A DNA stretch of 28,322 nt, from the IMG/VR virus record IMGVR_UViG_2778261641_000008; one strand, written 5' to 3'. Origin of the DNA: a virus. Taxonomy: Duplodnaviria > Heunggongvirae > Uroviricota > Caudoviricetes. Of the stretch, positions 1,260-7,129 are shown one piece after another. Made by a program: the position numbers and the translations under genes. The notes under the pieces are model-generated. The model did no database searches. It was not told where the DNA came from and saw nothing but the letters and a program-made list of their open reading frames with translations. Every line of letters starts with the position of its first letter. Position 1 is the stretch's first letter.

Positions 1260-2153
1260 CTATTTCCAGTTACAAGCAGCTTGAAGTGGTTTTAGCGCGT
1301 TTGACAGGCCGTTTAAATTGAAAGTTGCACTTACAGGACTCTCATTATAAGGAGTTATTTTTGTATACATTTTGTTTGAGTTGGCTAGTTTTCGGATGAA
1401 ATCAATGTCATTACCTTTATAAAAAACAGCCTTTGTATCTGTAGATACTAGCCAGTTTCGCTCAACTGCTTTCTGTTTATCAAGACGATAAAGCATGCTG
1501 GTTTGTTCAAGGCCTAAATATACATCCCAACTAAGAAATACTTCGGTTTTCTTTTCTCGGCAAGCTATAAACAGAGTGGGAGTAACCGCTTCTCCAAATG
1601 GAGTTCTGATATAATCATCACTTTCTAACGATAAAATTACATTTTTCGAATCATCAATTGGCGATGTAGTAATGGATGTGTGCCATTTTCCTACATCTGT
1701 GGCTTTCTCTAATTTTGATTCAGCTTGAACAGCTTTATCCTGTGGGAATAGTTTATCGTAGCAGTTTAGTCTGGCTTCTTTATCATTTTCTGCTCGGCAT
1801 TTAGATATCTCAGAAAGATTTGGTTGCTGAGCCTCTGTTGTTACTGGCTTTTCCGTTTTAGATTTTGAGTTTACAGATGGAGTAAATGTTGGAGAAAAAA
1901 AACGATCATAACAAGATAAACGTCTGTCATCATCTTTCTCATCAGGGCATTGATCTCTGCTTTCGAATTTTTCAGCAACTTTCGTTCGAGTCGGTTGTAT
2001 TGACTTATCGTAACAAGAAAGTCTGTCTTTATTATTTTCTATTGCTCGGCACTGGAGTACTGCATTGAAGTTATTATGTTCAGTTGCTGCGTGAACAGGC
2101 AGTACACTAATTGATATAAATGATGCACCTATAGAAAAAATTATATTTTTCAT
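1260..2153 (-). CDS. Secreted protein with signal peptide and three tandem Cys-containing repeats; unknown function
   Basis: 297-aa ORF. N-terminal signal-like segment MKNIIFSIGASFISISVLPVHA. Motif recurs three times: RLSCYDK, RLSCYDRFF, RLNCYDKLF. AT-rich relative to flanks; immediately downstream of the 2158-2490 gene. Confidence 0.6.
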   Translation of the reverse strand: MKNIIFSIGASFISISVLPVHAATEHNNFNAVLQCRAIENNKDRLSCYDKSIQPTRTKVAEKFESRDQCPDEKDDDRRLSCYDRFFSPTFTPSVNSKSKTEKPVTTEAQQPNLSEISKCRAENDKEARLNCYDKLFPQDKAVQAESKLEKATDVGKWHTSITTSPIDDSKNVILSLESDDYIRTPFGEAVTPTLFIACREKKTEVFLSWDVYLGLEQTSMLYRLDKQKAVERNWLVSTDTKAVFYKGNDIDFIRKLANSNKMYTKITPYNESPVSATFNLNGLSNALKPLQAACNWK

Positions 2154-2157
2154 TTTG

Positions 2158-2490
2158 TTATCCTTTTGGTTTAGTAAGAAATACTAAAATTCCGATAATG
2201 ATATCGCCAATAACCCATAAACTTCCAATGGTAATTAAACCTAAGCCTGTACCAATAACTGCACCGGCTTTTTCGGCATCGGATGTAGCATTATTTATTA
2301 TTTCACTAGTGCCTCCCAGTCCAACTAAAAGCGTATAGATCATAAAAATATTAAATAATATAAATATCCACTTAATGAGCTTTCCAAAAAATGAACGCTT
2401 AAGTTTTTTTATTTGTTTACCGCAAGCAGGGCAATACAATGCTGAATCGCTCACCTCTTTCTGGCATTCAGGACATTTGATTAATGCCAT
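2158..2490 (-). CDS. Small membrane protein with N-terminal zinc ribbon (CPEC-x13-CPAC) and two predicted TM helices
   Basis: 110-aa ORF with strong RBS AAGGAGG upstream of ATG at 2490. Hydrophobic segments IKWIFILFNIFMIYTLLVGL and LITIGSLWVIGDIIIGILVFL. AT-rich. Confidence 0.6.
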   Translation of the reverse strand: MALIKCPECQKEVSDSALYCPACGKQIKKLKRSFFGKLIKWIFILFNIFMIYTLLVGLGGTSEIINNATSDAEKAGAVIGTGLGLITIGSLWVIGDIIIGILVFLTKPKG

Positions 2491-2751
2491 GTAATCCGCC
2501 TCCTTTGGATCAATACGAGTTGATATTTGTTACAAAACATTTTGATTTTATCAGATTTTTTTTTATTGATAAGTGTCAATTGATTAGCTGGTATAGAGTG
2601 AGACATATAGAAGGGCAGATCTGTATCAGTAGTGATGCAAAAATCCCACAGTTTCATGGAATTTTTGCATTTAGAGCCGTGAGATAGGGTGCCTTATCGA
2701 CCTTACCCTGGCAACCGATTGACGGGGGATTACTCCCCCGTCGCGGTTTCC

Positions 2752-2892
2752 TTACTGCTTACACTGTAAGAACGCCGCAAACTCCGCTCCCCAGAAACTC
2801 ATCCGTATTTCGCACAGCGAACCGTGCAACATCCAGATGATGAGGATTACCGTCACGCAGAACGTGATGGCTGTAAGCGATTTTTGCGACAT
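2752..2892 (-). CDS. Hok/Gef family type I toxin (46 aa); absent from the ORF track because it is under 60 aa
   Basis: Hand translation of the minus strand gives MSQKSLTAITFCVTVILIIWMLHGSLCEIRMSFWGAEFAAFLQCKQ, stop TAA at 2754-2752. It has a TM helix followed by the SLCEIR...AAF signature I associate with Hok/Gef peptides. A 7-bp stem-loop at 2723-2740 (CGGGGGA ttac TCCCCCG) sits in the 3' region. Confidence 0.7.
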   Translation of the reverse strand: MSQKSLTAITFCVTVILIIWMLHGSLCEIRMSFWGAEFAAFLQCKQ

Positions 2893-3082
2893 AGCACTTG
2901 CTCCTTTTCCGGAGAGGCGCTAACCTTTCACTTGCTTAGGGTAGACGGTTAGGGCCTCGGTTAAACAAAAGTGTTTTCCGGGGCCTTTCCACATCTGGCC
3001 TTCGGGTATTCCCTCCGACCATCAGCCGAAAGGCACCCGCGCGTAATCTATCGCTTTTTTGTTACTCCGGCAATTCTGCTTG

Positions 3083-3343
3083 TTAATTCTGAGGTAAAGG
3101 CAAACTCATCTGATTGTTTCCCCTGTGTGAAGCTGGTAGCTCATGCCACGGGATACCTTCTGAAGAGTAAACGCCGGAGGCGTGTTTCGATGTGAATTTA
3201 TGGAAAGCTTCCAGTGTTGAGAAGCATACGCCGCATTCCAGATTGTTACACTGGTAATACTTTTGCCGCACGGTGTTTGAATCATTTTCCGGACGACTTG
3301 TGCGGATACGGGCAGATGCGCCACAAAGCGGACAACGGAACAT
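3083..3343 (-). CDS. ogr: Ogr/Delta-type zinc-finger late transcription activator
   Basis: Translation starts MFRCPLCGASARIRTSR...YYQCNNLECGVCFSTLE, the Cys4 pattern and N-terminus characteristic of P2 Ogr. Confidence 0.85.
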   Translation of the reverse strand: MFRCPLCGASARIRTSRPENDSNTVRQKYYQCNNLECGVCFSTLEAFHKFTSKHASGVYSSEGIPWHELPASHRGNNQMSLPLPQN

Positions 3344-3534
3344 AGCGACCTCCCTTAACGTGGTGTTGCCGCTATTCTAGATTGTACGATCCCTAATTCC
3401 AACTAACAGCTCGCTCTGTGCGAAGAGTGAAAATTGAACTTTCAATAGTTGTTGAACTTCCATACATCCAATGTGAAAATTCATACGTTCATAATAGTTA
3501 AAATTTAAAATATTGTATATCAGGTGAATAAAGC

Positions 3535-4557
3535 ATGGGAAGAGATATAACGCTGTACCCTAAAAAAGCAACTAGAAACGAACTTAAAAATTACCTTGAA
3601 AATTTAGGTTTTAAAAGGTGTAAACATTTGTGGGAATGGCCCCAAGGAACGTTGAATTACTCTTGGTTTGATGATACGGACTTCAAATCTACAGATGGAG
3701 TTTCGGCTGATATATATCCTGTTTCAAATGACGAATTACACATATCTGGTAATAAATGGGCATTGCATGTGCGTAATTTATATAGCGCTAGTTGGCATGA
3801 TGTAAAAATGCTTAATGATGTTCTAAAAGGCGCAAGGAGTCTTTTTGGTGGAACACTTATAGGTGATTATGGGAAAAATAGGTACGCTCCTCTATGGAAG
3901 GATTCTAGTAGTCCGATCAGTCGTGGCATTTCTTCAATATTTAATCATGTCCATCATGAGATTTCCGCTGTTAAACATGCCTTACCTGAACCTTCTATTA
4001 AATTAAACCTACCGGAAGATGGCGGTTTATCCGAATACTTTGATTACATGCAATGTATGGATCCCAGTAGAGTTATATATAATGGATTAGTACCTTTTGC
4101 GGTTGCTATGTTTGAATACTTTTTCTCTAGAGCTTTTCAAATACTTATAAAGTACGATCCTTTCGCAATAGCAAAAAGAACATCGTATAAGCAAAAAGTT
4201 GATTTTGACATTCTGCTTGAGATAGAGAAAGGAAATATTTCAATAGAAAGTGTTATTGCAAGAAATTACACTTTTCAAAACTTAACCCACCTAAACAAAG
4301 CATATAAAGAGTGGCTGGATATAGATGTGAGAGCGATTCTTTATAAGAAAAAAAGAATTGGAAAATCAGTTGATTTTCTTGAGAATCGAATTTCTGAAAT
4401 CATACAATATAGACATGGGATAGTTCATCACTTTGAGTTGGATAGGACCTTAAATCGGGATGGATATATTCATATATTAGATGCGATAGAAAAAAGCATA
4501 ATTGAATTTATCCATTACATAGAAGGCAAATACAAATTTAAATTAAATGCGTATTAA
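3535..4557 (+). CDS. Hypothetical AT-rich cargo protein (340 aa) with C-terminal RHGIVH (Rx4H, HEPN-like) motif; candidate abortive-infection or defence protein
   Basis: Single long ORF in a markedly AT-rich island. AGGTGA RBS 7-8 nt before ATG at 3535. Hairpin at 4586-4609 downstream. Not recognisable as any P2 core protein. Motif QYRHGIVHHF near the C-terminus. Confidence 0.6.
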   Translation: MGRDITLYPKKATRNELKNYLENLGFKRCKHLWEWPQGTLNYSWFDDTDFKSTDGVSADIYPVSNDELHISGNKWALHVRNLYSASWHDVKMLNDVLKGARSLFGGTLIGDYGKNRYAPLWKDSSSPISRGISSIFNHVHHEISAVKHALPEPSIKLNLPEDGGLSEYFDYMQCMDPSRVIYNGLVPFAVAMFEYFFSRAFQILIKYDPFAIAKRTSYKQKVDFDILLEIEKGNISIESVIARNYTFQNLTHLNKAYKEWLDIDVRAILYKKKRIGKSVDFLENRISEIIQYRHGIVHHFELDRTLNRDGYIHILDAIEKSIIEFIHYIEGKYKFKLNAY

Positions 4558-4585
4558 GCAATCAACCTTACATAGGGATGACAAA

Positions 4586-4609
4586 GTCCGCTTCTGACAC
4601 GGAGCGGAC
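4586..4609. terminator. Stem-loop between the convergent 3535-4557 gene and D (GTCCGCTTC...GGAGCGGAC)
   Basis: Imperfect 8-9 bp inverted repeat followed by a T-rich stretch; lies between two convergent stop codons. Confidence 0.4.
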
Positions 4610-4677
4610 CGTCGTTTATGTTTAATTCTATACTGTAAACTTGCCAGTTTAAGTTTGAGCTAATATGTCTAAGTTGC

Positions 4678-5787
4678 TCACTCTGTTTCTGCTATCCATT
4701 CCGGGATTTTTGCCTCAAGCTCAAGCTGTGTGGTAAAGCCGCTGTTATCAATGGTGTGCTCGGCTTTCGCAATAATCCAGTCCTGATTATCAATCTCGCT
4801 TTTAAATCCTGTTACCGTGCCATGCATTTCGGGGTAGAGTTCTGCACGTCCACGCACCAGCGTGATGGAAAATAATGCGGCTCCGCGTTGTAGCTGCTGC
4901 CACTTTGCCGCCGCTGCGCGTCTTGCTGCCTGCTCGTTCTGATAAGTCTTGCGTAACACAAACACATTGCCTTCCGCGCCTTCCATATAATCACCTTCAC
5001 GGCTGCTGCTTTTCTCCTTTTTGGGTTTTGGCGGTTTGCGGCGTTTCACGCTGACTTTTTTCTTTTTCCCGTAATTAAGATCAAGCCAGTAAGCGCGTAC
5101 CCCCGTATACGCCTCGCGGTCAGCAATGCGGAACTGATGGCGATCGCCGCTGCTGCGTGTGATGGCGAACGATGGCAACGGCTGGCCCTGTGCGTTCACG
5201 CCACCGCCGGGCATGATGAATAACAGATTACCGCTTTTTACCGTGGTGATTGCGCCCAGCATTTCCGCCATGCGCGTAAGGAAGGACATGTCGCTTTCTT
5301 CAGTCTGGTCGGCGTGGTCGATTTCGATATCCATCAGCATTTCGCTGATTTGCGGTTTCAGGCTGTACCGATGAGCGATGGCGGATACCACACGTTCAAC
5401 GGTCACATCATGCCAGGACGCCTCACGTTTAACATTAAATTCATCCCGAAAATCTGCGCTTCTGGCTGAAACAGTCAGCCTGTCCGGCGGTCCTTCGTGA
5501 GCGATTTCATCAACAATGTAAGTGCCTTTTTCTGTCAGCGGTTCCCCTTTCCAGCCAATGAGAACCGTCAGACGCGCGCCCCGTGGCGGTAGCTGCAACT
5601 GGCCATCGGCATCATCCAGCGTGATGGTGAGCTGGTCCGCCTCAAATCCCCGGTTGTCGGTCAGTGACAGGCTCATCAGGCGTTCTGCCACGCCGGACAG
5701 CGTTTTACCCTCGGCGAGAATATCAAAATCCGGCATTTTCACGGGGTCTGTGCCCTGACTGAGCAATTGCATGGTGGTGTCGGTCAT
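4678..5787 (-). CDS. D: P2 gpD-like tail protein (late control gene D family)
   Basis: ORF track frame 4678-5919. Preferred start is ATG at 5787, preceded by GGGAGGG 5 nt upstream. Protein reads MTDTTMQLLSQGTDPVKMPDFDILAEG, about 369 aa. Confidence 0.85.
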   Translation of the reverse strand: MTDTTMQLLSQGTDPVKMPDFDILAEGKTLSGVAERLMSLSLTDNRGFEADQLTITLDDADGQLQLPPRGARLTVLIGWKGEPLTEKGTYIVDEIAHEGPPDRLTVSARSADFRDEFNVKREASWHDVTVERVVSAIAHRYSLKPQISEMLMDIEIDHADQTEESDMSFLTRMAEMLGAITTVKSGNLLFIMPGGGVNAQGQPLPSFAITRSSGDRHQFRIADREAYTGVRAYWLDLNYGKKKKVSVKRRKPPKPKKEKSSSREGDYMEGAEGNVFVLRKTYQNEQAARRAAAAKWQQLQRGAALFSITLVRGRAELYPEMHGTVTGFKSEIDNQDWIIAKAEHTIDNSGFTTQLELEAKIPEWIAETE

Positions 5788-5944
5788 CTGTTCCCTCCCT
5801 GTGCGGCATGGTCGCATGTGCGTGCGGAGGGGGTTACTGCTTTTTGTTGTCGCCGTGGCGGGAGAATAGCGCAGGGGTGAGATTACGCGCGTGGTGGGTG
5901 ATGATTGTTGCTGAATCATTTAACGGATACAAGGGGCTGAAGCT

Positions 5945-7129
5945 ATGAGTGAAACTCGTTTTCATGGTGCCCGTGTTACGGAAAATACCGACCTGGTAAC
6001 AGCGATTAACGATGTTGATTCCAGCGTTATCGGTATCGTGGCAACGGCGGATGATGCGGACGCGAAGCTGTTCCCGCTGAACAAGCCCACATTGCTGACC
6101 CGCGTCAATGACGTGCTGGGAAAATGCGGAACAACGGGGACGCTTTATCGTGCGCTTAAGGCCATCGCAGACCAGGTGAGCACAAAGGTGATCGTCGTTC
6201 GCGTGGCTGAACACAAAGAAGAAGACGGAAAGACGCAGGATCAACTGGTTATCGGTGGTTCTGAGGATGACGGCAGCTATACGGGGATGTATGCGCTGCT
6301 TGTTGCAGAGCAGGATGAAAGCATCGGATACCGTCCGCGTATTCTGGCCGCGCCGGAGCTGGACACGGAGGCTGTAACAAAATCCCTGTGCGTGATTGCA
6401 GGTAAACTGCGCGCGTTTGTGTATGCCTCATGTCACGGCTGTAACACGATGGCTGAGGCGATTACCTATCGCCAGAAATTCAACGAACGTGAGGTGATGC
6501 TCTTATGGCCGGACTTCATCGCCTACAACCCGAAAAGTGGCAAAAACGAAACGTTCCCCGCGCCTGCCTATGCGTGCGGCCTTCGTGCGTACATTGACCA
6601 TGAGCAGGGGTGGCACAAATCACTGTCCAACGTTCCGGTTAAAAATGTGCTGGGGATGTCGAGGCATGTGTTCTGGTCGTTGCAGGCCGAAGACAGCGAT
6701 GCCAACAGCCTCAACAACAAAGAAATCACGACCATTATTCGTCGCAACGGGTTCCGCTTCTGGGGCAACCGCACACCGGAAACGAACGCCTACATCTTTG
6801 AGGTGTATACCCGAACCGCACAGGTGCTGGCTGATTCAATTGCGGAAGCGCAGTTTGAAACCATCGACAGTCCACTGACGCCTGCGAACGTGAAGGATGT
6901 TATCAGTGCCATCAGGGCAAAACTGGATTCGCTGGTTACTGCCGGGAAACTGATTGGCGCGGAGTGCTGGTATGACGTGGTGGATAACGGCACCACGGAT
7001 TTACGTCAGGGGCGTGTGCGTATTCGCTACAAATATACGCCCGTTCCGCCACTGGAAGACATGGAGCTTTACCAGACGTTTACTGATGAATTCTTTGGTC
7101 CCGCATTTGCGGTGCTGGGAGGTGCCTGA
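5945..7129 (+). CDS. FI: Contractile tail sheath protein (P2 FI)
   Basis: 394 aa; the FPLNKP...GTLY...AIADQ motifs resemble P2 FI. AAGGGG RBS. Stop overlaps the FII start (TGATG). Confidence 0.9.
   Translation: MSETRFHGARVTENTDLVTAINDVDSSVIGIVATADDADAKLFPLNKPTLLTRVNDVLGKCGTTGTLYRALKAIADQVSTKVIVVRVAEHKEEDGKTQDQLVIGGSEDDGSYTGMYALLVAEQDESIGYRPRILAAPELDTEAVTKSLCVIAGKLRAFVYASCHGCNTMAEAITYRQKFNEREVMLLWPDFIAYNPKSGKNETFPAPAYACGLRAYIDHEQGWHKSLSNVPVKNVLGMSRHVFWSLQAEDSDANSLNNKEITTIIRRNGFRFWGNRTPETNAYIFEVYTRTAQVLADSIAEAQFETIDSPLTPANVKDVISAIRAKLDSLVTAGKLIGAECWYDVVDNGTTDLRQGRVRIRYKYTPVPPLEDMELYQTFTDEFFGPAFAVLGGA

Follow-up and report, generated by a model that had tools for sequence, protein, structure and literature searches.

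The virus record IMGVR_UViG_2778261641_000008 of IMG/VR (Duplodnaviria; Heunggongvirae; Uroviricota; Caudoviricetes) comprises 28,322 nucleotides (nt), referred to here as the window, in which a gene for a 340-amino-acid (340-aa) protein with a predicted HEPN ribonuclease (RNase) half lies alone in a cassette between the late-gene activator gene ogr and the tail gene D. The coding sequence, taken from the open reading frame (ORF) list with an ATG start, spans positions 3535-4557 of the + strand including the stop codon, and is preceded by a ribosome-binding site, AGGTGA, at 3522-3527 (+), 7 nt before the ATG. To its left is ogr (3083-3343, -), assigned by annotation and by the Pfam family Ogr_Delta (E 5e-14), and to its right is D (4678-5784, -), assigned by Phage_GPD (E 1e-16), the annotation of D in phage P88, and a tblastn match over 368 aa; the ORF list extends D upstream to 413 aa, with P88 D matching 368 aa. 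Because the 340-aa gene is on the + strand and both neighbors are on the - strand, it is divergent from ogr and convergent with D. The inserted DNA has a G+C content of 0.34, compared with 0.48 for ogr and 0.54 for D, and in 300-nt windows the content is 0.31-0.39 over 3301-4650 and 0.47-0.59 in the flanks. Between the gene and D, still within the insert, a terminator scan of both strands detected a G+C-rich hairpin at 4586-4609, with a stem of 9 bp that includes 6 G-C pairs and a folding energy of -23.9 kcal/mol (z = -3.3 relative to shuffled sequences), which likely acts as a bidirectional terminator for the convergent 340-aa gene and D. These features confirm the original prediction of an AT-rich island between ogr and D with its own ribosome-binding site and downstream hairpin, transcribed opposite to both border genes. 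A stop-free run of 340 codons would arise by chance at the composition of the insert with P ~4e-13, and the insert contains no second ORF longer than 47 aa.

The cassette, ~1.29 kb long and spanning 3376-4676, was delimited by BLAST against P88 and phage 520873, by junction alignments, and by a 9-bp direct repeat at its limits (TCTAGATTG at 3376-3384 and TCTAAGTTG at 4668-4676). Phage P88 lacks the cassette and has just one of the two repeat copies at the junction, and BLAST places the DNA that is extra relative to P88 at ~3380 to 4663. An origin as an insertion sequence or transposon was rejected, as neither terminal inverted repeats nor a transposase were found in the insert, which has only the 9-bp direct repeat. 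At 99.6% identity, the region matches the Peduoviridae prophage record 'Escherichia phage 500465-2', the D and ogr genes of which are 94-98% identical to those of P88, PhiR44_2, Shae_phiSM, P884B11, and Chuche, all five without the middle 1.3 kb. From this identity of D and ogr, the prophage is by sequence P88-like (Xuanwuvirus/Gemsvirus, Peduoviridae), and thus a member of the P2 family and not P2 itself. The original prediction had taken the adjacency of ogr and D in P2 as its baseline: the phage was the wrong one, but the claim of an insert holds, since the ogr ATG and the D stop codon are just 42 nt apart in cassette-free P88. The D gene is also divergent from the FI-FII-E-T tail block (+), with D and the block at 4678-7129, an order typical of P88-like phages. 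In P2 itself, the FETUD genes form one co-directional operon.

The C-terminal part of the protein, residues ~127-333 (3913-4533, +), is predicted to be a helical HEPN domain from a Pfam match, an AlphaFold2 model, and conservation. The family PF18735 (HEPN_RiboL-PSP) matches residues 181-329 over 161 of 191 profile positions with E 1.2e-4 and 22.5 bits. Among 56 diverse members of the protein family with 19-62% identity, which served as the conservation set, 40 match PF18735 at E <= 0.01 (best 4.3e-10), most close homologs carry a precomputed match to it, and UniRef already names the 340-aa protein 'RiboL-PSP-HEPN domain-containing'. The sequence QYRHGIVHHF is present near the C terminus, as had been pointed out from the sequence, and within it R293-H-G-I-V-H298 (4411-4428, +) fits the Rx4H form of the HEPN signature and is predicted to be catalytic. 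The original prediction had staked itself beforehand on the RHGIVH residues being conserved among homologs, and this is borne out: R293 and H298 are invariant in the 56 sequences, down to ~20% identity, as well as in 30 close relatives. The other invariant residues of the set are G55, D89, E194, and F247, with S86, N94, G105, G106, G113, N183, Q248, and H294 (93%) conserved in at least 90% of members, and purifying selection is strong over the whole length of the protein. The reading of the protein as a solo HEPN nuclease rests in part on the invariance of R293, H298, and E194 because this combination is a signature of active HEPN nucleases (PMC3710099). In the AlphaFold2 model of the whole protein, which has a predicted local distance difference test (pLDDT) score of 83, the C-terminal half adopts the all-helical fold of a HEPN domain. 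Of the profile and structure searches that had been proposed as a check, Pfam gave the sub-threshold PF18735 match and Foldseek gave no significant match to the Protein Data Bank (PDB). Searching all PDB chains by sequence profile, with either close or distant alignments, returned nothing or spurious coiled-coil matches. The Abi_2 profile matched neither the protein (E <= 1) nor any of the 56 relatives (E <= 0.01), and those relatives contain no recognizable CARF or other nucleotide-sensing domain.

The N-terminal part, aa 1 to ~125 (3535-3909, +), is an alpha+beta domain that contains the conserved positions from G55 to G113 listed above. No Pfam family matches the N-terminal half in any of the 56 relatives. 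When residues 1-128 were modeled alone, AlphaFold2 returned a pLDDT of 95.3 and a predicted template modeling score of 0.88, and structural comparison of this domain gave matches at the level of fold class only: ZipA (8.1), Med20 (7.6), the N-terminal domain of spermine synthase (7.6), KA1 (7.2), the NRD-HEPN region of RnlA (6.7), and the N-terminal domain of RNase H3 (~6). As modeled, the domain is a generic alpha+beta sandwich of a kind used elsewhere to bind protein or RNA. A profile built from the N-terminal domain retrieves just truncated copies of the same family, from which it follows that the two-domain architecture is fixed; the idea that the domain is a shared sensor module, swapped onto other effectors, was rejected on the same result. 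The suggestion that the protein represents a new family is correct for the N-terminal domain and for its fixed combination with a HEPN domain, which are what is new here, and not for the HEPN half, which appears to fall within a family defined by computational analysis in 2013.

The junction between ogr and D carries different genes in different prophages. Among 5,426 complete Escherichia coli genomes, 1,691 match some part of the region 2681-6000, and the cassette occurs in 65 (~1% of all 5,426), with one copy each, including sequence type 131 (ST131) and enterotoxigenic E. coli (ETEC) strains; the match extends over the adjacent D-family tail gene in all 25 of the E. coli genomes listed. From 60 evenly spaced matching records, 37 provided both flanks, and of these junctions 26 have the length of an empty site, 3 carry the HEPN gene, and 8 carry other inserts. 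The alternative cargos at ogr-D are single genes for a 355-aa PIN_12 protein (locus L041, 949-2019), a 499-aa PIN_4 protein (L042, 1108-2610), a 378-aa SEC-C/YecA protein (L043, 1149-2288), and proteins with no Pfam domain of 274 aa (L044, 1040-1864) and 385 aa (L045, 1071-2228), together with a 131-aa protein, also with no Pfam domain, in phage 520873 (L002, 979-1377). A relationship of the HEPN family to the 274-aa or 385-aa cargo was considered and rejected, as hhalign of the family profile showed them to be unrelated. Against the PADLOC 2.0 defense models the seven cargo types gave no meaningful match, with weak partial E2-type matches for the SEC-C protein, and the cargo proteins had no informative match in PHROGs or NCBIfam. 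The alternative cargos are candidate new conflict genes.

All occupied junctions have inner flanks in common (left, ...ATTCTAAGTTGT...TCCAACTGACAG; right, ...TGAGTTAATACATCTAAGTTGCTCAC), and the seven cargo genes share these flanks along with the 9-bp repeat TCTAAGTTG, seen at 3344-3420 and 4620-4676 of the window and in L002 and L041-L045. The left flank contains a predicted sigma-70-like promoter directed toward ogr (3374-3402, -), with a -35 element TTGGAA at 3402-3397, a 17-nt spacer, and a -10 element TAGAAT at 3379-3374, which together match the consensus at 9 of 12 positions. The TCCAAC of its -35 region is kept in the seven cargo variants. We infer from these sequence features that the cassette scaffold would supply ogr with a promoter once a convergent gene and its terminator part ogr from D. 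The description of an ogr-D hotspot was not found in the literature: the word 'ogr' is absent from the main text of Rousset 2022 and of the 2026 Nucleic Acids Research (NAR) study of P2 and P4, and the accessible part of Vassallo 2022 names only the replication endonuclease-portal and fun sites as P2 hotspots.

The protein is found well beyond this prophage. At least 1,000 public contigs encode the exact 340-aa sequence, and there are 295 homologs, nearly all 340-342 aa long and with E values down to 1e-230, showing 64-99% identity among the 120 listed. An exhaustive search of 50%-identity representatives yielded 284 clusters, with full-length members down to ~20% identity. A scan of loci in one genome per species, run with the close alignment, found 32 loci, and the full-length matches among them are mostly 51-88% identical to the query (one is 37% identical). 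The relatives belong to Gamma-, Beta-, and Deltaproteobacteria, Bacteroidota, Patescibacteria, Spirochaetia, Cyanobacteria, and Acidobacteria, with genera that include Hafnia, Mixta, Halomonas, Marinobacter, Achromobacter, and Desulfuromusa. In the window, as at all 27 foreign loci examined, the gene has a lower G+C content than its flanks, the difference being 0.03 to 0.235. An identity of 51-88% across phyla (L010-L038) is unusually high for a gene on the move.

Recurrence of the cassette at ogr-D in other P2-family prophages, as had been anticipated, holds for E. coli-type P88-like prophages, and relatives in other genera lie elsewhere. A constant ogr-D position in P2-like prophages of other genera was accordingly rejected, since ogr and D flanks were found only on E. 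coli-type contigs. IMG/VR adds five E. coli P88-like contigs and two others. In one of the five, an otherwise near-identical prophage (L053, 3538-4556), the match to the gene is split into two segments that overlap, aa 1-282 and 272-340, which points to a frameshifted and probably inactivated copy. Of the two others, one is a 39-kb viral contig that has an 84% relative at its end, adjacent to umuDC, and the other (L051) has an 81% relative beside tail-fiber and assembly genes of another P2-like phage; L050 and L051 represent the other prophage contexts. In L051 (1-2700), the gene is inserted among duplicated or truncated genes for tail-fiber C-terminal and assembly proteins, in an arrangement that looks variable or invertible and lies near the Z/fun hotspot of P2. 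The only contig with ogr and D flanks in the scan of one genome per species, labeled as a 'Planococcaceae' metagenome-assembled genome (L009, 2170-2430), has an identical cassette with D at 98% identity and ogr at only 72%; as its copy of the gene is 100% identical to the query it was taken to be of E. coli origin, and the contig is probably E. coli-derived contamination. It shows the cassette adjoining a divergent ogr allele.

A survey of 135 neighbors, three genes to either side at 25 loci, revealed no recurring partner, with no Pfam family present more than twice. Genes encoded within this distance include ThsA (4e-202) with ThsB, HamA with HamB, a CBASS cyclase with a two-transmembrane (2TM) effector, PDC-S25, PDC-S08, PDC-M43, and LmuA-like proteins, as well as transposases and a DUF927 primase. 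At one locus (L030) a complete Hachiman system is directly upstream (HamA 9e-64, HamB E 0), and a Pseudomonas copy is in an island with an integrase, AlpA, and DUF927, among the prophage and satellite-like islands that hold some copies. The absence of a conserved partner, the position as cargo at a swap site, and the known defense systems next to some relatives uphold the proposal that the gene is a prophage-borne single-gene module.

At the prophage end, just beyond ogr (2752-2892, -, and 2879-3038, -), are a hok/mok-type killer gene, which related records annotate as Hok/Gef or as 'MokW-like host killing', and a sok antitoxin RNA (Rfam RF01794). The latter scored 51.9 bits where the gathering score is 59 (E 4e-10) and was the sole match, outside the cassette, in an Rfam scan of 2500-4800. 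A second AT-rich island, at 1050-2700 with a G+C content of 0.30-0.38, sits between the prophage end and the host gene flk, just beyond the DNA homologous to P88, the start of which is at 2681. The ORF at 1260-2153 (-) encodes a VasI/TagO-like protein of 297 aa that contains three repeats and matches Pfam VasI (2.6e-25), and the one at 2158-2490 (-) encodes a membrane protein of 110 aa with a zinc ribbon.

Known systems provide points of comparison. HepS, a solo HEPN protein from the Gifsy-1 prophage of Salmonella (PDB 9oik), acts in abortive infection as a tRNA anticodon nuclease and stays inactive until it is triggered (PMC13043305). It is the system that the 340-aa protein would most resemble in its working, yet the two have no detectable sequence relationship, HepS is 218 aa long without the N-terminal alpha+beta domain, and its prophage is lambdoid and not of the P2 family. 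Lacking homology to PDB 9oik and the single-domain build of ~218 aa, the cassette protein does not belong to the HepS family. The Ribo L-PSP-HEPN family, which has an Rx4-6H motif and is distant kin of AbiD/AbiF, is named for fusions to L-PSP and occurs in ParB operons (PMC3710099). The HEPN half of the cassette protein falls at or just under the threshold of PF18735 and, unlike the namesakes of that family, the protein has no L-PSP fusion or ParB operon: no endoRNase L-PSP domain occurs in the 56 members and no ParB among the 25 neighbor families listed of 95. In the DefensePredictor tables, PD-T4-2_B is labeled as a RiboL-PSP-HEPN protein and is part of a validated system. However, PD-T4-2 is a multi-gene system (A + B) while the cassette holds a single gene with a different N-terminal domain, and the PADLOC models for PD-T4-2 do not match the 340-aa protein (E <= 1). 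The 340-aa sequence was not found in the DefensePredictor supplements.

RnlA and LsoA, the toxins of the RNase LS systems, are anti-T4 HEPN mRNA endoribonucleases that combine TBP-like N-terminal domains with a HEPN domain and are encoded next to an antitoxin, RnlB or LsoB. The cassette protein has a similar domain order, but it shares no sequence similarity with them, has one N-terminal domain instead of two, and has no adjacent RnlB/LsoB-type antitoxin in the insert or at the 25 loci, which places it outside the RnlA/LsoA group. It also differs from the HEPN-MNT (HepT/MntA) type VII systems, as it is much larger, has an extra domain, and has no MNT nucleotidyltransferase adjacent to it in the window or among the listed neighbor families of the 25 loci. 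Regarding the location, published studies describe P2-family defense hotspots at the old/tin locus between A and Q and at the Z/fun locus, where unrelated accessory genes swap into near-identical phages (Rousset 2022; Vassallo 2022; 2026 NAR study). The ogr-D junction likewise lies between core genes and has replaceable cargo, although its position is different; one relative, L051, does lie near tail-fiber genes. The same NAR study gives empty hotspots as extremely rare, at least in P4 (3/3,085), in contrast to the sampled ogr-D junctions, of which ~70% are empty.

On balance we lean, by a modest degree, toward the reading that the cassette is horizontally acquired cargo of P88-like phages encoding a latent solo HEPN RNase for abortive infection or phage exclusion. 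This reading is based on the fixed two-domain protein, its invariant Rx4H motif, the lack of a partner, the swap junction, the transfer across phyla, and the defense islands in which some relatives are found. The HEPN, single-gene, and mobile-cargo parts are supported by the analysis, and a defense function is plausible. In HEPN nucleases, the Rx4-6H motifs of two domains form one active site (PMC3710099; PMC13043305), and solo HEPN defense proteins are inactive until they encounter a phage cue (PMC13043305). Because dimerization is the general HEPN rule, we propose that two HEPN domains of the cassette protein would dimerize, with a composite active site built from R293 and H298 and probably aided by E194, N183, and Q248. 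The resting state would be a latent oligomer, in which the N-terminal domain could bind an RNA substrate or an infection signal, gate the geometry of the dimer, or both, so as to keep the enzyme off until a competing phage arrives. Once switched on, the enzyme could cut an essential RNA, such as tRNA anticodon loops, mRNA, or rRNA, leading to a stop in translation and an aborted infection. The -35 element of the scaffold would preserve the ogr promoter, and the hairpin would end the convergent transcripts. Carriage of the gene against the late operon, with its own ribosome-binding site, suggests expression in the lysogen, as for a moron-type gene.

Several observations weigh against a defense role or against the HEPN assignment on which it depends. 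At 22.5 bits, the PF18735 match falls short of the gathering cut-off of 28.4, scans of PADLOC 2.0 (E <= 1), PHROGs, and NCBIfam gave no match to the 340-aa protein, the promoter scan found none above its threshold on the + strand before the gene, and we found no phenotype or biochemistry for this HEPN cassette family in the literature, where none of the accessions searched for is mentioned. The high proportion of empty junctions in the sample, ~70%, points the same way. In curated phage genomes the gene occurs only in 500465-2 (two records) of 50,697, no copy was found on plasmids (PLSDB, n=72,556), the Shewanella and Aeromonas loci are small islands among housekeeping genes, and many loci have no recognizable defense neighbor. 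Finally, an immune sensor would not usually be expected to retain 60-70% identity across phyla, a level more in keeping with a conserved cellular ligand than with a phage trigger that evolves fast. If one may speculate, the very high conservation of the N-terminal domain across phyla could mean that its ligand is a conserved component of the cell and not a variable protein of the phage.

Three other explanations were considered, each of which fits fewer observations than a latent abortive-infection RNase. The gene could be a selfish toxin or addiction element, or an inter-bacterial effector, with its N-terminal domain acting in cis like an antitoxin and with no role in phage defense, in which case it would persist through the harm done by its loss or misregulation. 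The hok/sok killer module just beyond ogr indicates that this prophage end collects such genes, but the cassette has neither an antitoxin gene nor room for one, its relatives have no conserved neighbor, and no MNT, secretion, or delivery domain accompanies it. Moreover, the junction is mostly empty without scars beyond the single repeat copy, so that loss is tolerated, and we consider this explanation unlikely. Somewhat less likely again is an RNase that serves the phage, whether in anti-defense, through cleavage of cyclic oligonucleotides or of host defense RNA, or in lytic host takeover or RNA processing. Some HEPN ring nucleases degrade cyclic-oligonucleotide second messengers, and anti-defense genes sometimes adjoin signaling defense systems. 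Carriage by prophages in three settings, the convergence of the gene with the late tail operon, the proximity of some relatives to Thoeris and CBASS, and the HEPN domains of Csm6 among the matches to the structural model would all suit such a role. Most relatives, however, are in chromosomal islands without phage genes nearby, most sister phages lack the gene, which is found in one phage genome of 50,697 (two records), its orientation against the late operon with its own ribosome-binding site would favor lysogen expression, and no CARF or other nucleotide-sensing domain is recognized. Least probable of the three is a non-catalytic or non-RNase HEPN fold, a regulator or a protein that binds a ligand or nucleotide and is carried along incidentally, which would suit the sub-threshold Pfam match and an N-terminal fold class (ZipA, KA1, Med20) that is mostly a binding module, but which sits poorly with strict invariance of R293, H298, and E194 at ~20-60% identity, the signature of active HEPN nucleases (PMC3710099), with strong purifying selection over the whole length, and with repeated horizontal acquisition, which argues for a selected function.

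A bolder proposal extends the latent solo RNase to the whole site, and we offer it tentatively, as one that is doubtful in its full extent. The ogr-D junction of P88-like Peduoviridae would be a third, undescribed immune-cargo hotspot of the P2 family, its at least seven single-gene occupants would all be new one-protein abortive-infection systems, and the HEPN protein would represent a new and very widely transferred family of sensor-nucleases, the N-terminal domain of which, given its 60-70% identity between phyla, would read a conserved cellular event, such as a perturbation of translation or RNA metabolism, and not a phage protein.

To a specialist, a HEPN gene in a prophage is unsurprising, and if the cassette has no phenotype it would be an ordinary prophage moron of unknown role. 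The ogr-D hotspot and the conserved, widely transferred two-domain protein are nevertheless cheap experimental targets, and the junction offers a compact, easily delimited set of ~7 uncharacterized single-gene cargos for functional screening. Solo HEPN abortive-infection systems of prophages have only just been shown, with HepS in 2026, and the cassette protein would add a second, unrelated architecture.

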